DNA of 22,290 nt, taken from contig CAZGJX010000073.1 of the NCBI GenBank assembly GCA_964525635.1, positions 1-22,290 on the forward strand, given 5' to 3'. The position numbers were made by a program, and so were the translations under genes. The notes below the pieces were generated by a model. That model did not search any database. It was not told the origin of the DNA and worked only from the letters and a program-made list of their open reading frames with translations. The DNA comes from an uncultured archaeon (GTDB lineage: Archaea > Asgardarchaeota > Lokiarchaeia > Sigyniarchaeales > SOKP01). How positions within the stretch are numbered: position 1 is the first letter of the stretch; each line of letters opens with the position of its first letter. Positions 2,792 to 19,085 of the stretch are shown piece after piece.

Positions 2792-3793
2792 TTAATTATT
2801 ATATTTTTTCTTGTTAATATATCCAATAACAAGAGCAATTATTGCAACCATTCCTACTATTCCAACACCACCATAAAAAGCTGTGGGTGGGATAAAGGGT
2901 ACTGTTTTTATACTGCTATTGGTAGTATTCGTTTGATTTCCTACATCGCTTGAATTCAATTCTGTTGATATTTTTCTTATCCTAACTAGATGTACTAAAA
3001 TGTTTATGTTTAGCTGTACCTGATAATTTTTAAAATCCATAGAATAAAATCCTCCCACAGCAGTACCGAATGGAAAATCTATTGGTGTATTAAATGCCAT
3101 AATCGGTTTACTGTTAAAGATTATAAATACAATACCATTAGGATCTGTTAAATTTAAATTAATTTCTAGTGTGGCATCCAAACTGTAAGCAATAGGGCTT
3201 ACTCTACTAATATAGAATTTATACATTGTATCTGTTTCAAGATTTATAGAACAATTATGGTTTTCTTCAGGGTGTACAGGAAAAGGAATATCAGACATTT
3301 TATCGCCTTGATAGATACTAATATGAATATTCAAGTTCGGACCTTCTGTTTCCGTAAAGATTAAAGTATGGTTTCCAGTAACAGCTACACCATAGGGGAC
3401 TGTATAATAAGCATTAAAGCGCATTGGAACCTCTGATTTAAATATATGATATATCAACCCATTTGGATCAATTAGTGTTAAATTCATATGGCACTCATGT
3501 TCATCGGTTACAACAGCAAATTTGATGTGATAAAATGACTGGTTGAGTAGATATGGATTTAGGACGATTTGTCTATGATTTTCATGAAACGTATGTACCT
3601 TGTCGTGTATTAGTCCTTCACCCAGATCTTGGGTATTTAATTCAGATCCAAGTACGCTAATTTCTGTATTCTGGGAATTCATTTTCTGGATATTTATTAC
3701 ATTTGGAATAAAAACTACTCCCACAAGAAAAAATAAAAGTATTATTCCAGGTGCTATTTTTTTTTTGCATTTCACTATGTTTTTGATTTTCAT
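2792..3793 (-). CDS. Cell-surface/membrane-anchored protein with two tandem 'DPNG' beta-domains
   Basis: N-terminal basic + hydrophobic segment. Internal duplication ('MNLTLIDPNGLIYHIF...VPYGVAVTG' vs 'INLNLTDPNGIVFIIF...FPFGTAVGG'). Asn/Thr/Ser linker, C-terminal TM helix and KKKY tail. Confidence 0.85.
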   Translation of the reverse strand: MKIKNIVKCKKKIAPGIILLFFLVGVVFIPNVINIQKMNSQNTEISVLGSELNTQDLGEGLIHDKVHTFHENHRQIVLNPYLLNQSFYHIKFAVVTDEHECHMNLTLIDPNGLIYHIFKSEVPMRFNAYYTVPYGVAVTGNHTLIFTETEGPNLNIHISIYQGDKMSDIPFPVHPEENHNCSINLETDTMYKFYISRVSPIAYSLDATLEINLNLTDPNGIVFIIFNSKPIMAFNTPIDFPFGTAVGGFYSMDFKNYQVQLNINILVHLVRIRKISTELNSSDVGNQTNTTNSSIKTVPFIPPTAFYGGVGIVGMVAIIALVIGYINKKKYNN

Positions 3794-4182: not shown

Positions 4183-7100
4183 TTAGGTTAATCTATATCT
4201 TTTCTTCTTATAAATTAAGTGTATACCATAAATAAGTGATATAAGAGTCATTACTATAATCCATGGACCTAATGAAATATTTTGTTGATTATTTGTAGAT
4301 TTTAATAATATTTCATCATAATAAATATCTGAGACTAATCTAGCTGAATCCATATATTGCACATAAATTCTTTTCAATCCATCTCCTTCAGATAAGCTAT
4401 AAATTATCGTTTCTTCAAAAGACTCCCAATCACTCCAAAATGTACCATCATAACTAAAACGCATTTGTACAACCAAATTAATATCGCTAGCATTGAGTGT
4501 TAGAATAACATCCTTTACTTTAGTCGAACTTTCATCATTGTTTATTTTAATTGATCCTGTTGGTTCTATTGTATCAAGTATAATTGAATCTGAAATGGTA
4601 TTTGCAGAAATGAATCCATTTGAATCTTGAAATTGAACATAAATTGTTTTTAAACCATTATTTGAAGAGAAAATATATTGCTTTAAAGAATTAAATGGTT
4701 CCCATGAGCTCCAATCTGTATTATTATCATCACTGAATCTCATCTGGACGGCATTAGATGATGTTATACTCAGAGCTATAGAAGATGAAGTGCAATAAGT
4801 ATCTCCATTATTTATCATAATTGTACCAGTGATGGGATCAGGATAGATGGAGAATGAAAAATCACTCTCATCTAAATTCAAACCACCAAATCCATCATCT
4901 ACATTTACACGAATGACTATAGAATGAGAATTTGAAAGCATTGAAAAATCCCATGTATAATTCTGTTGTTTGATTCCAGATTCAATTAAATGCCAACCAG
5001 TATTCTCAATATTATAATAAAGACTAAAGGTTAAATTGTCATTATCAATATCTGTTGCAGACCAATTTATTAAAACTGAATCTGCAATGATTTCACCGCC
5101 ATTTGGATATAATAATTGTATTTCAGGAGCTTTATTTTCTACTGTATAGCTATATGGCTGATCACCAATATCTCTTTTTATTGAATGGTGATTTCCTATA
5201 TCCCACGCTTGAATATACCATTCCATTGTGGAACCATGCGGGATAGAAGGAAGATTTCCTTCATATATAAACGTATTATCAATCCAGCTAATCCTCTGCA
5301 GTTCAATATAATCAGATATATCATCATAACTATAGCTCACCCATACTCTATCAATAGATGTTTCTTCATCTAAAGTAACTGTAATTAGAGGATTATCATC
5401 CGAGCAAATCAAACCATCACCAGTAGTATCGTATTGATACGAAAGATCGGTGATCAATGGGGAAACATAGTCTGTTGAATTAAACTCTAGCGGATTAGAT
5501 GTCATAGTAAAATTTTCATTAGATCTGAAAATATAAGTCCCAAAAAGTCTATCAATACCAACATCCATATGTAAATGATCAGAAACATCATCATCTTCAA
5601 GTTTATAATACGCTTCCATTTCATGATTAAATTGAGTCTCTGAATACACCTTGGTATGACCACTAACAAATGGTGTTTCGAATTCATTAGTAAATAATTT
5701 CTGACGCATACTTTGAGACATTTGCCATTCTATTGTTGAGGTTTTTCTCTCAGTATTGATTTGTTTTGTACTTTCTTCCCAAGCTATTTGAGCATCCCAT
5801 CCAAAATCTTGTTTTAACCAACTTACATTTTGAAATCCATTATAGACTTGATTCTGAAGTTTCCAAAGATCAGGAGCGTTCTGATGATGAAGTATCTTTT
5901 CTCCTTCTGCTGTTATCCAATATTTTATTTGATATTTTAAATGTTCAATTGTTCCATTATAGAAACTCCGATTACATTCAATAATATCATAACGCACAGT
6001 CCAAGCCTCTCCCCAATATACATCCCCTCTTCCTAATCCAATATAATTGGGATTAACACTCTCAATATTTGATGAGAGAGAGGTATAATTTGTGACCTGC
6101 AACCTAAAATCAAACTCCTCAATTGTTTCATTTGATTCGTGAAATTCTAATCGAGTTCCTACAGAACCAATGCTAAATCCTGCATAACTTGGTGTAATTT
6201 CAAATCCATAATCCCAATCTTCATTATCGGTATGAAAATCAAAGTCTACTCCAATTGACAGATCTGTGGTGCTCTCTTTAAATTTAGAAAATGAATGATC
6301 TCCAGGAGGATCATGAAGTATAAGATATAGTTGATCTCCCATATACGTAAAATTATGTTCCAGTAATGTTGAAATATATTCTTTCACCTTTCCAAATCGA
6401 AATATACGTGTATCATTTACTAGCTCAACATCATTAGAATATCCATGGAGTGTTGCTGATACCAATCCTTCAAGATTATGCTCCAAATATGATATATTGA
6501 CTTGATTTAAATTCCATACTGAACCATAATCATAACCTTCAATTGTAAGATTTACATTATTAATTCCAATCTTATCATAGGTAAAATTAAACCAACTATC
6601 GTCTCCAGCATTAAATAAAATATGTTCAATGTCAGAGGGATTCTCCCATTTTACAAAAGGTTCTTCAACGGGAATGATATCAGAATGAAACCTGACGTCA
6701 TCAGAACTCGTATCTGTTTCCTCGCCCAATTCTTTTACATCATTATTAATATCAACATCTACATAAAACCAGAAATCACCCGTTTCATATGGGATAAAAG
6801 GTACTTCTACTTGAAAATCTTCTTCAGGAGCAATATCATAGGGAACATCAATAAAATAATCAAATGTATGAAGGGGATTGCCTTTTTGCCAAATCTTTAC
6901 TGAAAAATCCTCATTTGAATAAAGTGTATCTACTCCAACATTTGTTAAATTAAGCCATAAACTTGTTGGCACTCCTTCATACCATAATTCTGTACGATAA
7001 ATATTGGAACATACAATATTGGGCTCCCATTTTTCTATTAAAATATAATCCCATTGTGCATGAGTCCACCAAGATGATCCCACACATGATTGTGATTTTA

Positions 7101-7761
7101 TTGCTCCCATTCCCATTTCCATACTTAAAACATCGGAATTTGAGATATAATTATAAGTCTCATATATATCAAAAGGACCATCATAAGTGTCATAAGTACT
7201 ATCGATTATTTCTCTAATGATATCATTATTATTTAATCTAAAAAAAAACTCAAAAACATTTTCAAAAACAGGATTTTCAAATATATTTCTGCTCATTGCA
7301 TCTCTATAATTTATTTTTATGTGATGATTATATCCTTGTGAAATAGGGATATTCCTATTAATATTTGTATACTCGCCAGGATAGACATGAAAATTAGTTG
7401 GCGATACTATTGTAGCAATAAATCCTTGTCGATGACAATGAGACCATAAGCTATTAATAGCATCTGTTTCACTAAAGGTGTCTTCTGTTATGAAGCCTTC
7501 TGGTATTGTACCAATGCCTCCCTCAAATTCAGATTCAAGAAGTATGTCAGAAATAGTTAGACTGCTTTTTGGTTTATTTTCAATTAAATATGAATCATTT
7601 CTAGGTAAATGTATTTTTCCAATGAGACTCATCTGATCAATTAACATATTACCGAAACTAAAAAAAAAAGGAGATGTTAAAAAAATAACAAATAATATTT
7701 TTTTAAATTTAGATTTTATTTGTTTTTTATCTTCAAGTCTTTTACTTTTCATAAATCTCAC
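4183..7761 (-). CDS. Large cell-surface protein with CARDB/Ig-like domains and C-terminal membrane anchor (likely start ATG 7752)
   Basis: N-terminal signal/TM; CARDB-like segment ('LNLTNVG...VDVDINNDVKELGEE'); central 'ILHDPPGD' domain; 'NKAPEIQLLYPNGGE' Ig/FN3-like domain; two tandem 'TG.I.INN...QMRFS...WS.WE.F...G.K.IYVQ..D' repeats; TM + KKKR tail. The annotated GTG is part of a GGTGA SD-like motif upstream of ATG 7752. Confidence 0.9.
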   Translation of the reverse strand: MRFMKSKRLEDKKQIKSKFKKILFVIFLTSPFFFSFGNMLIDQMSLIGKIHLPRNDSYLIENKPKSSLTISDILLESEFEGGIGTIPEGFITEDTFSETDAINSLWSHCHRQGFIATIVSPTNFHVYPGEYTNINRNIPISQGYNHHIKINYRDAMSRNIFENPVFENVFEFFFRLNNNDIIREIIDSTYDTYDGPFDIYETYNYISNSDVLSMEMGMGAIKSQSCVGSSWWTHAQWDYILIEKWEPNIVCSNIYRTELWYEGVPTSLWLNLTNVGVDTLYSNEDFSVKIWQKGNPLHTFDYFIDVPYDIAPEEDFQVEVPFIPYETGDFWFYVDVDINNDVKELGEETDTSSDDVRFHSDIIPVEEPFVKWENPSDIEHILFNAGDDSWFNFTYDKIGINNVNLTIEGYDYGSVWNLNQVNISYLEHNLEGLVSATLHGYSNDVELVNDTRIFRFGKVKEYISTLLEHNFTYMGDQLYLILHDPPGDHSFSKFKESTTDLSIGVDFDFHTDNEDWDYGFEITPSYAGFSIGSVGTRLEFHESNETIEEFDFRLQVTNYTSLSSNIESVNPNYIGLGRGDVYWGEAWTVRYDIIECNRSFYNGTIEHLKYQIKYWITAEGEKILHHQNAPDLWKLQNQVYNGFQNVSWLKQDFGWDAQIAWEESTKQINTERKTSTIEWQMSQSMRQKLFTNEFETPFVSGHTKVYSETQFNHEMEAYYKLEDDDVSDHLHMDVGIDRLFGTYIFRSNENFTMTSNPLEFNSTDYVSPLITDLSYQYDTTGDGLICSDDNPLITVTLDEETSIDRVWVSYSYDDISDYIELQRISWIDNTFIYEGNLPSIPHGSTMEWYIQAWDIGNHHSIKRDIGDQPYSYTVENKAPEIQLLYPNGGEIIADSVLINWSATDIDNDNLTFSLYYNIENTGWHLIESGIKQQNYTWDFSMLSNSHSIVIRVNVDDGFGGLNLDESDFSFSIYPDPITGTIMINNGDTYCTSSSIALSITSSNAVQMRFSDDNNTDWSSWEPFNSLKQYIFSSNNGLKTIYVQFQDSNGFISANTISDSIILDTIEPTGSIKINNDESSTKVKDVILTLNASDINLVVQMRFSYDGTFWSDWESFEETIIYSLSEGDGLKRIYVQYMDSARLVSDIYYDEILLKSTNNQQNISLGPWIIVMTLISLIYGIHLIYKKKRYRLT
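4300..4845 (-). repeat. Two tandem ~90-aa Ig-like domain repeats (protein level)
   Basis: 'TGTIMINNGD...QMRFSDD..WSSWEPF...GLKTIYVQFQD' and 'TGSIKINNDE...QMRFSYD..WSDWESF...GLKRIYVQYMD'. Confidence 0.8.
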
Positions 7762-8006: not shown

Positions 8007-9623
8007 TCAATCTTTAAAGTCATTTTCTTTTCGATCTAGAAAATTTAATCCGATTTCTGAAATTTCATGTAATTTCTCTCTTCCTCTTTTATATTTAATA
8101 ATCATGAAGTTCTCAGTAAGTACATATGCAGTTTTTAATAATGTGTTTATATGGCAATCGAGCCCTTTTCTTAAATCTCCCACTAATACAGGTTTATTAT
8201 AATTTTTAAGATATTTTAAAAAAGGTAATATATAGCGTCTCTGTGATTTTTTCCAAGTAAAATAATCATCAAAAATGCTAAAGTATTTCCCTGATTTTAT
8301 CACTTGAAGAAATTGTATCCCAGCCGCTGTAATATTATAATTTTTCATAAAACTTCTTGAAATTAAATATTTATCTCTGAGGATTTTTAATGCAGAATCT
8401 AATTTTTTATCTGAGATGTTGTTTTCTAAATTAATCTCAAGGATATTTTTTTCGAGTATTTCTTTTGATACAGGATTGTATTCATTTTGCATTTGTTTTA
8501 ATGTATCCAATATAGTCAATATGTAATATTCTTGTTTAGTTAGATCTAATATATCTAAATATGTATCTTTTAATTCTTCTTCAGAGATTTCTTCTATTTC
8601 ATTAAGATCTTTATCATCTTTTGGATGAAAGTAATGAGAAAATGAATAAAGACCTTGTTTAATAAATTTTATAACCGTTGTATTCGAATGTCTTATTTTG
8701 AACTTTTTATATATATTTTTAATGCATATGATAATAGTATAGATATACAAGAACATACCTAATATAAAAATAATTAAAAATACAATTGGAATATCAATGT
8801 TAATAAAAAAAAGACTTGAGACAATAAGCATAAAAAGATGGGATGCGATTAAAGAATACCAAAAATATTTTATATACCTTGAAAATCTATTGATTTTATT
8901 TGAATTAAATAAAGTTGGAATTATTAGAATCAATAATCCTATTAATAGGAAAAAAGCAGGCAAGATAGAAGATAATATTCTTGCTTCTTTTACAAATCTC
9001 GAATCTAAAAATAATCCTGCTAAAACAAGTATCCCTCCAATCATATACATTACTGAAACAGAACTCTGGATTTGAGAAGGGCTCCTATATTTATAAGTGC
9101 CCCATAAAAAAAGCATAACAATAATAGTATCAATTCCTGCTAAAATAACCATGAGATTTCTTTGTATGTCAAAAGGTATGAAAAAGAGGGATATTATTAT
9201 AAATAAAATACTTAAACCTGATAAAAATTTTAAATATTTCCCAATTCTGTATTTTTTTTTATTTAATTTGATACTTATCCCTATAATTCTCCCAATTTCA
9301 TAAATAAAAATATTTATTGAAATATTAACGCTACTATGGGCTAATTGTATATATATTGGATAATAAAGCTCGTTAAAAGAATCATAGTTTCCAATAAATA
9401 TATGTCCATCATAGAAACCTTCTATATAATAATCACTTAAATAATAAAATAATCTCAATAAAGCTAATCCAAGAATAAGAACACCAATCATTCGATAAAT
9501 ACGTTTTATCATTTCATCTCTATTAAGTCCTCTGAAAATCAAATATATTCCAAAAAAGAAATATAAAAAGATCACAAAAGCCCAAATTATTCGATTTAGT
9601 GGATCAAAAATTATAAGGTCCAT
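8007..9623 (-). CDS. Membrane-tethered putative transcriptional regulator (about 9 TM helices + two C-terminal winged-helix domains)
   Basis: About 9 hydrophobic segments in aa 10-305. Two wHTH-like ends follow: 'LDSALKILRDKYLISR...YNITAAGIQFL' and 'GDLRKGLDCHINTLLKTAYVLTENFMIIKYKRGREKLHEISEIGLNFL'. Confidence 0.75.
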   Translation of the reverse strand: MDLIIFDPLNRIIWAFVIFLYFFFGIYLIFRGLNRDEMIKRIYRMIGVLILGLALLRLFYYLSDYYIEGFYDGHIFIGNYDSFNELYYPIYIQLAHSSVNISINIFIYEIGRIIGISIKLNKKKYRIGKYLKFLSGLSILFIIISLFFIPFDIQRNLMVILAGIDTIIVMLFLWGTYKYRSPSQIQSSVSVMYMIGGILVLAGLFLDSRFVKEARILSSILPAFFLLIGLLILIIPTLFNSNKINRFSRYIKYFWYSLIASHLFMLIVSSLFFINIDIPIVFLIIFILGMFLYIYTIIICIKNIYKKFKIRHSNTTVIKFIKQGLYSFSHYFHPKDDKDLNEIEEISEEELKDTYLDILDLTKQEYYILTILDTLKQMQNEYNPVSKEILEKNILEINLENNISDKKLDSALKILRDKYLISRSFMKNYNITAAGIQFLQVIKSGKYFSIFDDYFTWKKSQRRYILPFLKYLKNYNKPVLVGDLRKGLDCHINTLLKTAYVLTENFMIIKYKRGREKLHEISEIGLNFLDRKENDFKD

Positions 9624-9976: not shown

Positions 9977-10852
9977 ATGCTTGATGGAATTTGGTTATTT
10001 GTAATCATCCTGATTCTCGGTTTCTTTTTACGAATGATGTGGAGAGGACTTCCCTCAAATTTTCTGAAGACCCTCCTAAGAATCATTGCCTTCATTGGAA
10101 TCATCATCCATGAGCTGTGTCATTACGGGATGTGTCTTTTGATGGGAAAGCGACCAGAAAGTATAAAGGTGAGTTATAGAGAAATGAAGGGTAGTGTAAG
10201 GAGTGATGTAGGAACGTTCTTGCAGGCATTTCTAATTGGTCTTGCCCCGCTTCTTATAATGAGCTATATTGCGTGGTTTTGCCTTGATATCGCTCTTTTC
10301 TCGTCTTTTCTCTGGTACTATCGATGGTTGGCGGGGATTCTTGTAATCTCCATTCTATTCGCAGCAGGTCCGTCACCAGCAGACATTCGAGCTATAACAT
10401 CGAGATTTTCAAGGAATTCCAAATATGCTATGTTTCAGATATTAATAGTCTTCCTTTCAGGAATCATAGTCTATTTTCTAACGAGTAATCTTTTCATTCC
10501 AGTAAAATTCAGCTTTATCTACTTTATTTTTATAGGCGTTGGTTATTTTTTCTTGAAATACTTAGCTATGGGAGTGAATCTCTTGGCTCATTTGTTAACT
10601 GGTAATGGTGGACACAGGATACCTTCTAGACATGGATTTAGGGGCTCCATTTCCACATTAAAACTAAAGAAAAAGAGGAAGATTGGGAAAATCCCAGCAA
10701 CCAGAGATGGGGTTATTGACCATATCAGTAATGATGATACTATGATACCACAGCAACAATATGGGGAGGATAATCCGATAGATAATATTATCGGGACGAT
10801 TATAAAAAGAGGAAAAAGAAAACGAATCAAAATCGAATATGGACAGTGGTAA
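9977..10852 (+). CDS. Membrane-embedded zinc metallopeptidase, M50/M50B (site-2-protease)-like
   Basis: HELCH (HExxH) at the end of a TM segment, 'GLAP' motif, 'PSPAD' providing a candidate third Zn ligand, and multiple TM helices. Confidence 0.75.
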   Translation: MLDGIWLFVIILILGFFLRMMWRGLPSNFLKTLLRIIAFIGIIIHELCHYGMCLLMGKRPESIKVSYREMKGSVRSDVGTFLQAFLIGLAPLLIMSYIAWFCLDIALFSSFLWYYRWLAGILVISILFAAGPSPADIRAITSRFSRNSKYAMFQILIVFLSGIIVYFLTSNLFIPVKFSFIYFIFIGVGYFFLKYLAMGVNLLAHLLTGNGGHRIPSRHGFRGSISTLKLKKKRKIGKIPATRDGVIDHISNDDTMIPQQQYGEDNPIDNIIGTIIKRGKRKRIKIEYGQW

Positions 10853-11874: not shown

Positions 11875-12711
11875 TTAAATTATAGCAAAATATTGATACC
11901 AAACTTGTTGGTAATTACCAAACCATAGTTCTAACTTCTTAATTGTCTGAGCAAAATGATTTGACTGCCCTCTAATAGAAGCATCTCTTCCTATTTCTTG
12001 AAGTACTTCTCGATATCGTCTATATTTGGCGCGATAAAAGCGAATATATTCAGGAAATCTTCTAAAATTATGCCTGAACATACGATAATCGAGAACTCTC
12101 TGCGCCCCCCTAGCTGTCATCATCCTGCGTTTAAACGAAGGATAGTAGGTATACTTCTTATGATTGGCTTCTAATAGATTATTCGTTTTTGGAATACTTG
12201 GATTTCGCTGATGGGCTATAATTTTATAAAACCCGCCTTGCAAATTCTTCAGAGCTGTTTGAAGATGGTTAATCTTCCTTCCTTGTAATCGCTTTATTGT
12301 GCTCCGAACAATCTCTAATTTAATATATGCATCCGTTTCATTCTTCGAATTTATGACATTATAAAATCGTTTAAGGAGCCAACGCCATTGTTTGGGAATA
12401 GGTTTTATCGATTGAGTAGATAATCCACAGAAGGCTTTTACATGTTTTGAGATCATCCATTTCACATGAGTTAAACAATTCTGCTGGATAATATGTTTAA
12501 AACTATGGGTTCGAAGGAGCCCACCTAGATTTGTTGTCAAATCCTTTACAAGGCTTTTGATCCGTAGAGTATTGTGACAACGAGCTTCTTTAAACAGATG
12601 ATATCCTGCTTGTCTTCCCATCGATTCGGATATCATTGCTCCTGGAACAAATTTCGTCACCACATCCACCGTATCTAATGCGTACATTCTCTTCCCACTA
12701 ATTCGCATATG
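11875..12711 (-). CDS. DDE transposase, exon 2 (278 aa)
   Basis: Starts HMRISGKRMYALDTVD directly after the intron 3' end. Contains the second Asp (LVKD), QNCLTH (CxxH) and TNNLLE. The first 21 aa of the ORF-track model (12712-12774) are intron domain V/VI sequence. Confidence 0.9.
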   Translation of the reverse strand, partial: HMRISGKRMYALDTVDVVTKFVPGAMISESMGRQAGYHLFKEARCHNTLRIKSLVKDLTTNLGGLLRTHSFKHIIQQNCLTHVKWMISKHVKAFCGLSTQSIKPIPKQWRWLLKRFYNVINSKNETDAYIKLEIVRSTIKRLQGRKINHLQTALKNLQGGFYKIIAHQRNPSIPKTNNLLEANHKKYTYYPSFKRRMMTARGAQRVLDYRMFRHNFRRFPEYIRFYRAKYRRYREVLQEIGRDASIRGQSNHFAQTIKKLELWFGNYQQVWYQYFAII

Positions 12712-12752
12712 GTCGAGTAGGTCGGGATTGTTACCAATCCCTTCCCCTCTAA

Positions 12753-12786
12753 GAACCGTGCGTGCGACTTTCACCGCACACGGCTC
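12753..12786 (-). ncRNA. Group II intron catalytic domain V
   Basis: AGC triad, GAAA tetraloop, 34-nt hairpin. Confidence 0.95.
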
Positions 12787-12876
12787 AGGCAGAGAGTTCC
12801 AATCACGTCCCCGCGTACCCTTTCTTCATTCCACGTCACCGCTTCCTGAGTACTTAAGTTAAGTGATAATTGATGG

Positions 12877-14349
12877 TTAAGTCATTGCATATCTAATTTC
12901 CTCATATCCCCTTCTTCTCCAATAATCCTTAACCTTAGGGTTTGGATCTAAAGGAGATTTATCGCCAACTATAGACTTATATTTCAATATCTTGGTATCA
13001 CTTGCTTTTCTTAATGTATACCCTGTTTTATCAACTCTAAAAGTCCATTTTCTGTTATCAACTTTTCCATAGTACTTATTAGCTATCCATCTCTTACCTT
13101 TCTTATCATTCTTATGTCTTCTTACACACCAACGCCATATTTGTTGCCATAGTACCTTGTCCACTATTGAAAACGTTTGAAATGCATCAGAAAATCTATA
13201 ATACATAGCCCAGCCCCTAATCTTAGGGTTGAGCAGAGCTATAAACTTTCCCTGTTCCATCTGCTTATGAGTCCAAATAATAGATCTCATACTGTCTAAG
13301 AATTTCTTCACTCGTTCCTTTTGGGGTTTGATGTATAGTTTTTGTCTTGGCTGCTCAATCGTGAATCCTAAGAAATTAAATCCTTGTTCCTTATTTGTAA
13401 TTCTTGTTTTCTCTCTTTTCAAATTTATATCTCGTTTTCTAAGGAAGTTCACCAATTCTGGGATTATCCTTTTCATTGCCTCCTTCGTTTTTGTCATTAC
13501 TATAAAATCATCTGCATAAAGGATAGCGATTCCATCCTTTCCAATGGTCTCATGTATTCCGTGTAGTGCAATATTAGCTAATATTGGGCTAATTGGGCTT
13601 CCTTGAACGATACCCTTGTGTATTTTAAGTTTCTTGCCCTTGTCTATTATCCCCACTTTTAGGCATCTTTGAATAATTCTTTGGAATATATCCAATTTAT
13701 CTATAATTATTTTATGTCTTATATTATCAAAGAATTTATTGATGTCCGCATCTAATATAATTCTATCTCCTCTGTTCAACTCCATGTAGATTCGTTGTAT
13801 CGCGTCTTGGGTGCTTCTTCCAGGGCGAAACCCGAATACATCAGGGTGTAATATTGTTTCCCATTTAGCATTTAAAGCAAATGAGATTAACGTTGTCATG
13901 ACCCTATCTTTGATTGTCATTATTCCTAAGGGTCGTTTTTCCGTTATTGAGGGACATTTCCTATATCTCCGTTTATTATTTCGTATCCTTGTCCTCCAGT
14001 TCTCTTGTACTTTAGGTATGTATCGTCTTAGTACAGGCTGAAATTTATAAGTCCTATAATCAAATTTTTCTTTACTTAGTTCCATTCTTTCTTTTGATGT
14101 TAAATAGACTTTTCCATCTATTCCAGGGGTAATTTTTCCTTTATTCTTCTGGGTTATCATATAAATCGCCAATAATTTTGCTGATTCCGATCGTACCAAC
14201 AGTTTCATAAGGTTCCTTACCCGTTTATTATCACCTTTCTTGGATGCTCTGAAGATCCTACCTTGAAGTCGCCTTACATTCCGTTCCAGTTGGGAAAAGT
14301 TTATCTTATCCCACCAATCTTCTTGCCTATAGATTTGTTCAATTTTCAT
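12877..14349 (-). CDS. ltrA: Group II intron reverse transcriptase/maturase (no HNH endonuclease domain)
   Basis: RVT_N region (VRRLQGRIFRA...GKITPGIDG), RPLGI, FGFRPGRS, DADINKFFD, QGSPISPILANI, YADD, FNFLGF, X/thumb domain (LNPKIRGWAMYY). GAGGAG RBS upstream. Ends shortly after 'SPLDP...YW'. Confidence 0.95.
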   Translation of the reverse strand: MKIEQIYRQEDWWDKINFSQLERNVRRLQGRIFRASKKGDNKRVRNLMKLLVRSESAKLLAIYMITQKNKGKITPGIDGKVYLTSKERMELSKEKFDYRTYKFQPVLRRYIPKVQENWRTRIRNNKRRYRKCPSITEKRPLGIMTIKDRVMTTLISFALNAKWETILHPDVFGFRPGRSTQDAIQRIYMELNRGDRIILDADINKFFDNIRHKIIIDKLDIFQRIIQRCLKVGIIDKGKKLKIHKGIVQGSPISPILANIALHGIHETIGKDGIAILYADDFIVMTKTKEAMKRIIPELVNFLRKRDINLKREKTRITNKEQGFNFLGFTIEQPRQKLYIKPQKERVKKFLDSMRSIIWTHKQMEQGKFIALLNPKIRGWAMYYRFSDAFQTFSIVDKVLWQQIWRWCVRRHKNDKKGKRWIANKYYGKVDNRKWTFRVDKTGYTLRKASDTKILKYKSIVGDKSPLDPNPKVKDYWRRRGYEEIRYAMT

Positions 14350-14718
14350 TGTCTAACTCCTCTTATAGTTAAGGGTTCCTTCAAGGTACTTTCTCAGTCT
14401 CCACCACCTTTGAAGTCAGCAGACTTTCGTCTTGGAGCATCTCCTATATCTCATCGAATATCTCTCGATATAGGCTCCTATCCACCCTATTATTAGGCGG
14501 CATTCGCTTCCTCTTGGTTCCTCTGCCCGCTAAACCTTCCCCTTCACTTAGGATCTGGATACCGTATCTATAATCTTTTGAAAGGCGAGGAGATACCTCA
14601 TATGTCTTTCTTTTCCCTTTATAGTACGGGGTTTATCGGGTTTACCATGTTTTATATATTTGACTTTAATCGACTTCCTTAGGTACTTGCTCTCCCCCGG
14701 CTGAACTACGGATGGAAA

Positions 14719-14741
14719 AGCGATAAGAGATAATTATCGCT
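14719..14741 (-). other. Candidate EBS1 stem-loop of the intron
   Basis: 8-bp stem AGCGAUAA/UUAUCGCU with loop UUAUCUC. UAUCUC pairs 5/6 with the 5' exon end GAGAUU. Confidence 0.7.
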
Positions 14742-15023
14742 AACTGTCAGCATTACCTTTTGGTATGGCGTATCACTACCTTTCGCCACGGGGTACGTTA
14801 CGGGGGTTTATCACAAGTTCACTGTCGTTTACCATAGAAGTCCTGGCTAGCCCATCATCCGAATGGTAGTTTCGTCTGATAGTACATTGTTCCTAAAGCT
14901 TAACACATTATCGTTACCAATAATGCACCTTTAGGTAGCCACACCTATCCATCTTAGTGCCGTTTTCTTAGTATTTATTAACCTCCAAGTTTACGTATTC
15001 AAATATATAACTTCATGTCGCAC

Positions 15024-15554
15024 AATCTCATCATAGCCCCAATGTCCACTTGAGGGAATAGGTGTCTCTTGAAGCATGTCTCGTAATGGTTCTGCGACCT
15101 CATTAATCCAATTTACGATACTTGATTTCGAAATCGTAATTCCAAAATCGATTTTAAATACACGTCTAATCTGGGAGGGCATTAAGCCTTCCATATAATG
15201 CTGTCGAGCTCGTCGTTTATAGTTTTCATGATAATTTGAAAATTTAGGAAAGAGTTCCGAATAATCTGGATGTATTTCACCACATTGGGGACATCGTTTT
15301 CTCTGAATGAGGAATTGGAGTTTTCCTTTCCCATTATCGTGAATTATTACCCTCTTGTTACGTCCATTTTTTACTAAACGAGAGCCACAATCAAGACAAT
15401 GAGTTTCCTTTATTTTGACTGTATTCCCTCGCCCAATTTCAAGAGAATATCGGGATTTAATATTTGATTTGCAGTGTTTTTTCCGAAGTATTCCAATTTT
15501 CGGTTTTTTCAAGAAAGGAAAATATTTAATAAGACTGGTTTGTTCTATAAACAT
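15024..15554 (-). CDS. DDE transposase, exon 1 (177 aa: zinc ribbon, HTH, first catalytic Asp)
   Basis: CLDC...CPQC ribbon, HTH ('GLMPSQIRRVF...ISKSSIVNWI'), and 'WGYDEI' immediately before the intron GUGCG. Confidence 0.9.
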
Positions 15555-15971: not shown

Positions 15972-16321
15972 AAAGTTCTTTCTTTAGCGGTTTTTTTCTT
16001 TAAATACTTATATTATTTAATGATAAATAGGACTGATTAATTAATTATTAGATTTTAATAGTAATCCTTTATGCAGAATAAAGGAATCCTTCATCCCTTT
16101 ATTTACAATAAAAAAAATCATAAATATCAATTTATATATTGGTTTGGCTGAAAAAGACAATATTCAATTAATCGAGGAAAAAAAAGATATTTTTATATAG
16201 AAATAAATTGATATTTACTTTATAATTAGAATTTAGAGAAAGGGATCTTTAATATTATAAATTTTATGTATTATGTTTTTGAATATTGCATAATATAATT
16301 ACAAAAGGAAGGTGATGAGGT

Positions 16322-18205
16322 ATGAAGAGATATGTATTTAAAATATTAATAGCAGGTAGTGGAGGTATTGGGAAGACAGCTTTTTTAAAAAGGTTTGAAG
16401 AAAATGTCTTTACAGAAGATTATAAAATGACTATTGGATTTGCTCTTGATATAATCCACTATACATTGGAATTAGAAGGACAAGAATCAGTGCTAATAAC
16501 TGCCCATATAATAGATTGTGGGGGTGAGGAACGTTTTCGTCATGTTGTTGAGAACCTTGCTCAAGGATGTTCTGGAGCTTTTCTAGCTGTAGATTTAACA
16601 GATTATGAGACTTTCCAAAGTGTTCCTGAATGGTTAAAAATTATAAGAAAAAATGCTGGTTTTATACCTATTTGGTTAATTGGAAATAAATGTGATATCT
16701 CTGAGGATAAATATGAAATTGAAGATGAGGTTGCAAAAGATTATGCAGAACGAGCAAAGATGGCTGGATGGATTATGACATCAGCAAAAGAGAATATTAG
16801 GATTAAAGAAGCATGGAGATCTCTTTTTAAGTCTCTTATTGAAGAAAAAGAAGACACCCCTCTTTTAATTGAAATTGATAATCCCACAGACACCAAAGAA
16901 CAATTTAAAATAAAATTAATGGATATTTGTCAGGATAAGCAAATTGTGTCTTTTCTCACTAATGTGTTTAATGCCTTTTTAGAATATAAACCTTCAGAAG
17001 CAGAAAAAATGTTTACACTTGCTCAAGTTGGTGAGGATAGAATTTTAAATGCTTCAGAGCTACTTCATTTTATTGAGCAGATCAAGCATGAAAAAAAATT
17101 CGCAGAATTATATAATGTAGGAGATTATCTTCAAGCATTGGTTCAGATCCAAATTAGTATTAGAATGAAAGATAAAAAAGAAATAATGGCAAGTAATTTA
17201 ATAGAATGTGCTAAACATCTCAAACTTGCTGGTTATGAAAAACATTCAGCAATAACATTTGTATATGCCACATGTCAATTATTAACTTCAAATCGAGAAT
17301 TATTAAACCGAAAGCTTGATGAAGATGACTTTTATATTGATTTAATTGCTGTAGATAGGGATTTAATGGCATTTCCCTTATATCTTGTAGATGCAACAGA
17401 AATCACTAATGAAGATCCGAATCCACTTATAGGATTACTGGATAACGCTAAGAAATTCGGAGAGTATTACGGAATTGATTTAGGGAAATCAATCATTAAA
17501 GCAATTAATTGGGTTGAGGATAACTTAATAAAGCCTAAAATCACTGAAATTTCGGTAGAACCTCATCGACCATCTTCGGGAGATGATGTAAAATTATTTG
17601 TTGATATTGTAAATCCTACTGCAAAAAAAACCATTATTGAACTTCATCTTAGAGCTCCATTTTTCTCTTTTCCAGAGACTCATGTAAAAGAAATAATAGA
17701 ACCTCATACATCCAAAAAGATCGAAATTTATCTTGGGATTGTAAATACAAAAAGAAGGTCTGTAATAATCTCAATTTCCCTCAATGATGAAAATGGAGTG
17801 AGGCTTTCCACAACTTCTTATGATATAGGAATAAAGCCTTTAGACGAAAAAGTTGAGATATCTGAAATACTAATCCAACCTAAAAAGTTAAGATTAGACA
17901 ATGATGCAGAAGTAGTATTAACATTAAAAAAAAATCAAGAAAACCCATTAGACCTTATAATTCGCCTAGATCCAACAGGAATGGGGCTTCCGTCTGATGA
18001 AAAAAAATTATCTATTAAAGAAAGTATGGAGAAAATCACAATGAGTATAAAAAAGGCACAGGAACTTGGTATGCAAAGAGTTCATGCAATGGTGCTAGAT
18101 AAGGAAGGAAAACTCCTAACGGATGAAACAGCATATTTTAAAATAACTCGTTCTTTAAAGAATATTATGGGAAAGATATTAAAAATAGGATTCGATAAAA
18201 TATAG
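16322..18205 (+). CDS. Rab/Ras-like small GTPase fused to a helical region and two beta-sandwich (Ig-like) domains
   Basis: G1 GSGGIGKT, G2 MTIG, G3 DCGGEERF, G4 NKCD, G5 TSAK in aa 1-175. Helical middle. Two repeats of an 'I.EI.V.P.....D...V...L.N' beta-sandwich pattern. SD GGTGA/GAGG upstream. Confidence 0.9.
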   Translation: MKRYVFKILIAGSGGIGKTAFLKRFEENVFTEDYKMTIGFALDIIHYTLELEGQESVLITAHIIDCGGEERFRHVVENLAQGCSGAFLAVDLTDYETFQSVPEWLKIIRKNAGFIPIWLIGNKCDISEDKYEIEDEVAKDYAERAKMAGWIMTSAKENIRIKEAWRSLFKSLIEEKEDTPLLIEIDNPTDTKEQFKIKLMDICQDKQIVSFLTNVFNAFLEYKPSEAEKMFTLAQVGEDRILNASELLHFIEQIKHEKKFAELYNVGDYLQALVQIQISIRMKDKKEIMASNLIECAKHLKLAGYEKHSAITFVYATCQLLTSNRELLNRKLDEDDFYIDLIAVDRDLMAFPLYLVDATEITNEDPNPLIGLLDNAKKFGEYYGIDLGKSIIKAINWVEDNLIKPKITEISVEPHRPSSGDDVKLFVDIVNPTAKKTIIELHLRAPFFSFPETHVKEIIEPHTSKKIEIYLGIVNTKRRSVIISISLNDENGVRLSTTSYDIGIKPLDEKVEISEILIQPKKLRLDNDAEVVLTLKKNQENPLDLIIRLDPTGMGLPSDEKKLSIKESMEKITMSIKKAQELGMQRVHAMVLDKEGKLLTDETAYFKITRSLKNIMGKILKIGFDKI

Positions 18206-18563: not shown

Positions 18564-19085
18564 TTATTTCTTTTCTTCTAAAATATCTAAGACTTCAGAG
18601 ACACATCCATTTACATCTTTATTAATTTCATTTCCAGTAAAGCGAATAACTGTATAACCTTTCTTTTGTAAGAACCGTTGGCGTTCCGCATCATTGGTAC
18701 GCTGTTCTTTTGACTTATGGTATTCATGACCATCAAGCTCAACTACTACTCTTTTATCTATTACAGCAAAATCCACACGATATTGTCCAATAGGTTCTTG
18801 AGGTTTAATATCAGGAATAAGTTTTCTTGCAACTCTAAAAAATCGTTCTTCTATAGAAGATTCACATTTCTTTATTAAATCATCCTTTTCATTTAATATA
18901 TCAATTATTGAGATGTCTACGTGTAATTGAGTACCACAATTCTTACAAAATTCTTGTTCTGTAGTAGATTCATTTCCACACATCTCACAATAAATTTTAG
19001 AAGGAGTTTTTATTATTTGATCAGAACTTGCTCTTTTACTAATTAACTTATTTGTATTTCTAATATTAATCCTAGGATTGTCCAC
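18564..19085 (-). CDS. Zinc-ribbon + DUF559 (Vsr-like PD-(D/E)XK) endonuclease
   Basis: CEMC...CKNC ribbon; 'QEPIGQYRVDFA...VVELDGHEYH...DAERQRFLQKKGYTVIRF' is the DUF559 pattern. Confidence 0.85.
   Translation of the reverse strand: MDNPRINIRNTNKLISKRASSDQIIKTPSKIYCEMCGNESTTEQEFCKNCGTQLHVDISIIDILNEKDDLIKKCESSIEERFFRVARKLIPDIKPQEPIGQYRVDFAVIDKRVVVELDGHEYHKSKEQRTNDAERQRFLQKKGYTVIRFTGNEINKDVNGCVSEVLDILEEKK

Follow-up and report, generated by a model that had tools for sequence, protein, structure and literature searches.

The window, i.e. the whole stretch of 22,290 nucleotides that was analysed, corresponds to one contig (C73) of the genome of an uncultured Lokiarchaeial host (G000). It harbours the gene of a 627-aa fusion protein, termed P0001, which is the subject of this study. 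The gene is solitary, its nearest downstream gene is convergent, and a scan for promoters and terminators gave chance-level matches only. The following features were assigned to the gene and its protein product:

16307..16316, + strand: Shine-Dalgarno-like purine run GGAAGGTGAT, 5′ of the ATG (sequence reading)
16322..18205, + strand: P0001 gene (GTPase-helical-Ig-Ig-helix fusion)
16322..16849, + strand: Rab-like (Asgard RabL) GTPase head, aa 1-176
16355-16378, + strand: G1 of the head
16430-16432, + strand: G2 of the head, T37
16514-16525, + strand: G3 of the head (+E69)
16685-16696, + strand: G4 of the head
16781-16789, + strand: G5 of the head
16889..17524, + strand: all-helical stalk, aa 190-401, ~12 predicted helices, solenoid-like
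17531..17839, + strand: Ig-like beta-sandwich repeat 1, aa 404-506
17840..18151, + strand: Ig-like beta-sandwich repeat 2, aa 507-610, CARDB/Transglut_C type
18152..18202, + strand: C-terminal basic amphipathic helix, aa 611-627, candidate membrane anchor

The host genome (4.45 Mb, 27% GC) looks complete and contains ~67 small-GTPase ORFs, and DNA of the host is present in salt-marsh metagenomes. The head-tail junction of P0001 is bridged by contigs from three other runs, and its reading frame was unaltered in four other samples. The GC3 of the gene (0.197) lies inside the range of the genome and is alike in head and tail, so that there is no sign of a recent foreign origin.

Directly upstream of the P0001 gene lies a group II intron (11875-15554, −), with Rfam domains at 12712-12788 and 14851-14959 and an RT/maturase ORF at 12877-14349. 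The intron is flanked by IS-transposase-like pieces (14991-15554 and 11875-12774) and was probably inserted into an IS gene. On the other side of P0001, a zinc ribbon is joined to a DUF559/Vsr-type endonuclease domain (18564-19085, −). Elsewhere in the window we found a surface protein of 1192 aa that has hydrophobic helices at both termini as well as Ig-like repeats (4183-7761, −; weak Big_7), followed by a smaller membrane-anchored protein with two repeats (2792-3793, −). A 516-aa protein (818-2368, +) carries an R-x4-6-H motif near aa 405, reminiscent of an Apea-type HEPN domain; at E 0.01 it was matched by neither Pfam nor PADLOC, and PADLOC gave no defence match. A multi-pass membrane protein, the cytoplasmic end of which is winged-helix-like (8007-9623, −), is encoded divergently from an M50-like membrane peptidase with a HELCH motif (9977-10852, +), and neither protein of this pair had a Pfam match at E 0.01.

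Per-genome iterated profile searches found the layout GTPase-helical-Ig-Ig-end helix in 4 of 400 Asgard genomes (4 of 161 Lokiarchaeia), all within one Lokiarchaeial order, whereas the Heimdall-side genomes searched yielded none. Besides P0001, the full-length members are P0002 (784 aa, from another family of the same order), P0003 (695 aa, same genus) and P0004 (685 aa, same layout). Since the architecture recurs in three relatives, the possibility raised in the earlier note that it is a one-off fails. A fifth copy, the second fusion-type GTPase of G037 (L161:3700-4389, +; G037:C380), runs into the contig end after its linker. It resembles P0002-P0004 in its head and linker and has a His at the catalytic Gln position.

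The P-loop, DxxG and KxD are kept in every family member. The tails are 15-27% identical (44% for the P0003/P0004 pair), and a profile of the Ig pair made without P0001 ranked P0001 first of 7199 host-genome ORFs (E=2e-8). No neighbourhood is common to the family members. A small zinc-ribbon gene is located upstream of both P0001 and P0004, which we did not count as synteny because this gene is multi-copy and 4-5 kb away. Among the other matches, the one in G305 was a chance match to isoleucyl-tRNA synthetase, and the weak ones in G216, G183, G186, G021 and G026 were Ig domains of secreted or unrelated proteins. In a protein at L069:454-1818 (−; G026:C129), an Ig-like domain is N-terminal and precedes the helical repeats, opposite to the order in the fusion tail. 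Sequence searches with the tail in protein sets of 5.8 billion and 1.84 billion entries returned the query alone, and scans of metagenome contigs yielded no relatives.

As read from the sequence, the head of P0001 contains all five motifs G1-G5 (aa 7-172) and matches Pfam Ras with E=2e-30, in agreement with the complete small GTPase and the intact nucleotide-binding motifs described in the earlier note. Its best PDB matches are Ypt1/Rab1, and the Pfam match to Roc is weaker (E 2e-18). P0001 would be expected to bind GTP and to hydrolyse it slowly. The position of the catalytic Gln is occupied by Glu, as in the stand-alone orthogroup that we regard as parental (see below), and this inherited residue suggests the need for a GAP. 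The aromatic effector triad of Rabs (F45, W62 and Y77 in Rab1) corresponds to F42/W64/Y79; it is retained in 14 of 14 rows of the stand-alone orthogroup and replaced by L42/I64/L79 in P0001. From this loss one might guess that P0001 signals via its own tail and not via the external effectors of its parent.

Compared with a single-copy stand-alone GTPase of ~177 aa, which is present in about 118 of 160 Lokiarchaeia and fused in none of them, the P0001 head shows 42-50% identity; with the heads of the other fusions it shares only ~30%. In a 69-sequence tree, from which long-branch and Rag/Arf-like rows were omitted, the P0001 head was sister to this orthogroup (support 100/98), while the other four fusion heads formed a separate clade (support 100/99). 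A single clade of all five heads was rejected by the AU test (p=0.016), a result that was not significant under thinner sampling (p=0.076). The branch of the P0001 head is long (0.78 compared with 0.05-0.25), and this head has evolved fast. The stand-alone orthogroup itself is characterized by a DFAGE switch II and is highly conserved over Lokiarchaeia (L164-L192; L162:2144-2677, −). No separate stand-alone copy was detected in the host genome, where the best match is the P0001 fusion, and the three congeners of the host likewise gave none at the threshold used; in G037, no split tail gene was found downstream of the stand-alone orthologue. As the heads derive from two Rab-like paralogues, either the head was replaced or the tail was fused twice, and head and tail were not inherited as one ancient unit. 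The presence of one tail on two paralogues suggests selection for the pairing.

The ~210 aa following the head of P0001 are all-helical, with ~12 stacked helices, in a low-confidence tail model that was built from four sequences (mean pLDDT 61, 40-70 in the helical part, pTM 0.32); a single-sequence AlphaFold2 model of the whole protein reached a pLDDT of 39. The region had been described as TPR/SNAP-like, of which only the helical character was retained, as none of the four fusion tails matched PF14938 or TPR models. The profile similarity of the P0001 helical region to that of the other members was not significant, and homology of the stalk therefore rests on its position and a short visible motif. 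The two ~100-aa beta-sandwich repeats, on the other hand, are a genuine tandem Ig pair (hhalign 97.6%). No Ig sandwich family of Pfam scored above threshold for P0001. The best Foldseek matches of the pair were a transglutaminase C-terminal Ig pair and RbmA, an atlas search matched CARDB proteins, and the Ig of a Loki surface protein was aligned with an hhalign probability of 61% (E=8e-5), this control having been picked from the family search and thus being biased toward a match. The best matches of the pair are thus generic sandwiches of the CARDB/transglutaminase type and Loki surface-protein Ig, an outcome that the earlier note had named as counting against its proposal. Kinship with adaptin or COP appendages was not upheld, because the model predicts two sandwiches that resemble each other, followed by one end helix, with no alpha/beta platform. 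No TRAPP, adaptin or COP chain was found among the 50 matches listed (Foldseek, and a second and a wide VIA search); as one Ig domain fills these lists, this weighs little against such matches. The tail profile, based on a shallow alignment, matched nothing among PDB sequences at E up to 10.

All four full-length members end in a Lys/Arg-rich amphipathic helix. In P0001 this helix has a hydrophobic moment of 0.63 and a charge of +5; both values are reached by 0.17% of 2415 host-genome C-termini, and the matching fractions are 0.21% for P0003, 0.66% for P0004 and 5.5% for P0002, with a measure that was selected after the helix had been seen. None of the four proteins has a C-terminal cysteine for prenylation. 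Asgard Rabs in general have no terminal cysteines and no prenylation machinery, and no membrane targeting of Thor-Rab was seen in cells (PMC10933270). Given these observations, the end helix suggests itself as an alternative device that may anchor P0001-type GTPases in the membrane. Alternatively, such a helix can pack on a protein or serve in dimerisation.

We consider it probable, with moderate confidence, that the fusion is a lineage-restricted, ‘large Rab-like’ GTPase of Lokiarchaeia that arose by domain shuffling and acts as a membrane-anchored switch-scaffold. A stand-alone Asgard Rab-like GTPase gene would have been joined to a tail consisting of the helical stalk, a duplicated CARDB-type Ig domain and the basic amphipathic end helix, and the evidence points to a recent event. 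The end helix may bind the inner face of the cell membrane, in place of the prenylation of eukaryotic Rabs. The stalk and Ig pair would presumably act as a spacer and protein-binding scaffold, which might be turned on and off by the binding of GTP or GDP to the head. Wide lineage-specific shuffling of the domains of Asgard eukaryotic-signature proteins has been documented (bioRxiv 10.1101/2020.10.19.343400; PMC10933270). The host genome contains ~19 small-GTPase ORFs of at least 300 aa. By eye, we recognized in this genome a TIR-LRR-GTPase (C25:8199-9704), a roadblock-GTPase-LRR-membrane protein (C39:19777-22635), a roadblock-GTPase-DUF4268-like protein (C17:19341-21389) and a GTPase with a Pro-rich tail and zinc ribbon (C41:13130-14815).

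It is unlikely that P0001 instead arose by shuffling close to mobile DNA as a largely neutral product, whose head is decaying to a non-switching domain and which has no GTP-regulated role. The gene adjoins a group II intron set among IS-like transposase pieces, the members lack a common neighbourhood and are patchily distributed, and the P0001 head evolves fast and has lost the triad, all of which would fit such a product. However, P0001 has kept its five G motifs, and the P-loop, DxxG and KxD persist in all members despite the low identity of the tails. Moreover, the end helix has been conserved, such a tail acquired a GTPase in two lineages, and the frame is unchanged across four other samples.

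A second alternative concerns a protein of ~420-440 aa, in which a SNAP-like solenoid is followed by two Ig domains and which occurred in 36 of the 91 Asgard genomes sampled, the host among them (G000:C109:3785-5128, −). Further loci are L055, L056, L058, L060, L063, L064 and L223-L251. In Lokiarchaeia, its gene adjoins that of AMP phosphorylase. The best PDB sequence matches of this protein are gamma- and alpha-SNAP, and PF14938 or TPR was matched in six of six stand-alone proteins. A weak match of the family to PF23643 (TRAPPC13_C) was discarded as non-specific, since it also occurs weakly in Bacteroides and Methanocaldococcus; the fusions had no match to this model. This protein is a candidate for a more ancient TRAPP/adaptor-like scaffold than the fusion. 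If the fusion tail were a diverged copy of it, the fusion would couple a Rab-like switch to its likely effector or adaptor (a Rosetta-stone link). Both are cytoplasmic, with a helical, solenoid-like region before two Ig domains, and are alike in length and layout; in addition, this family accounts for the two nearest ESM-feature clusters of the P0001 and P0002 tails. These scores (0.75-0.88) are below 0.9 and thus a lead only. The hhalign comparisons with alignments of 6 and 32 members were not significant (probability 0.4-10%), and the profile of the SNAP-like family missed all four fusions (E 2.2 or worse). Unlike the fusion, the SNAP-like protein has no GTPase and no end helix, shows clear SNAP/TPR matches and is nearly universal in Lokiarchaeia. 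We therefore regard such a descent as improbable.

In our search of the Asgard GTPase literature, no description was found of a helical stalk, tandem Ig and amphipathic end helix on an Asgard GTPase, and the architecture appears undescribed. Described Asgard GTPase fusions carry roadblock/longin (26 of 74 in MK-D1) or unnamed extra domains (PMC10933270), and the suggestion of an undescribed eukaryotic-signature protein is thus narrowed to a variant, not described so far, of the multidomain GTPases known from Asgard archaea. For one branch, the fusion family offers a testable answer to the questions of how unprenylated Asgard Rab-like GTPases get to membranes and which effectors they have (PMC10933270), with an amphipathic anchor and a scaffold that are both built in.

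Like other Asgard Rab-like GTPases, P0001 combines a G1-G5 head and the lack of C-terminal cysteines with a patchy, lineage-specific architecture (PMC10933270; bioRxiv 10.1101/2020.10.19.343400). Ig domains of the CARDB, Transglut_C and NPCBM-associated types (PF07705, PF00927, PF10633) are usually extracellular in archaea, whereas the P0001 pair has no export signal and sits behind a GTPase. Roco proteins (Roc-COR) and the large Rabs Rab44/45/46 also have a Ras-superfamily domain embedded in a larger scaffold. P0001 differs from them in having no COR domain, LRR, EF-hand or prenylation motif; an assignment to Roco was rejected, as COR was not matched and the head is followed by an all-helical region and then Ig.

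The earlier note had also proposed a relative or analogue of the TRAPP large subunits. The order GTPase fold, helical region, Ig domains is indeed that of Trs85/TRAPPC8, Trs120/TRAPPC9, Trs130/TRAPPC10 and TRAPPC11 (PMC10152722, PMC8204860), and Trs120, Trs130 and TRAPPC8 consist of a GTPase-like domain, an alpha-solenoid and four Ig domains (PMC10152722). The TRAPP solenoid has 10-15 helices, compared with ~12 in the low-confidence model of P0001. In a true prokaryotic relative, the GTPase foot would still bind nucleotide as the ancestral state, and the solenoid would bind a longin/Bet3-like core, as the TRAPP large subunits do, and anchor it to the membrane. Apart from the domain order, such kinship would agree with the broad sandwich class shared by the TRAPP Ig/ASH domains and the P0001 Ig, with the amphipathic helix proposed for membrane binding in both P0001 and Trs85 (PMC8204860), with V4R-type proteins (Bet3-like fold) in all four member genomes, and with the eroding P0001 head, as a path to a pseudo-GTPase predicts. 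However, the helix of Trs85 sits between GTPase fold and solenoid (PMC8204860), whereas that of P0001 is C-terminal and its linker has no amphipathic helix. The TRAPP large subunits exceed 1000 aa and have four Ig domains, and the four fusion members have two each. Their GTPase-like folds contain insertions and are unable to bind nucleotide (PMC8204860, PMC9106297), in contrast to the canonical motifs of the P0001 head, a difference that an ancestral form might also show. TRAPP models of Pfam (E up to 1) matched none of the four members, and none of them has a longin or V4R gene as a neighbour. PF04051 (Bet3/TRAPP) had no match in the four member genomes but also none in the controls, so that its absence carries no weight here. 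The heads are canonical Asgard Rab-like paralogues of two lineages, so that the unit is not old, and its range is narrow. Homology to TRAPP is therefore very unlikely. There is equally little chance that these proteins are a relic, or a close living model, of a precursor of the large subunits, namely an active Rab-like GTPase joined to a solenoid and Ig repeats and bound to the membrane by an amphipathic helix, with the P0001 head part-way to a pseudo-GTPase; if true, this would explain the dead GTPase fold in Trs85, Trs120 and Trs130.

In the main text of the Asgard surveys consulted, only core TRAPP parts are described (PMC12962969, PMC10307638, bioRxiv 10.64898/2026.10.28.762692). The weight of the fusion for eukaryogenesis is limited by its rarity (1% of the searched Asgard genomes). 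Nevertheless, as judged from the motifs of P0001, archaea may evolve a GTPase-solenoid-Ig layout in which the GTPase is still live; this offers a useful model for the origin of the TRAPP large subunits, even if convergent. We regard P0001 as an analogue of TRAPP in layout only, working, at most, like a membrane-anchored GTPase scaffold.
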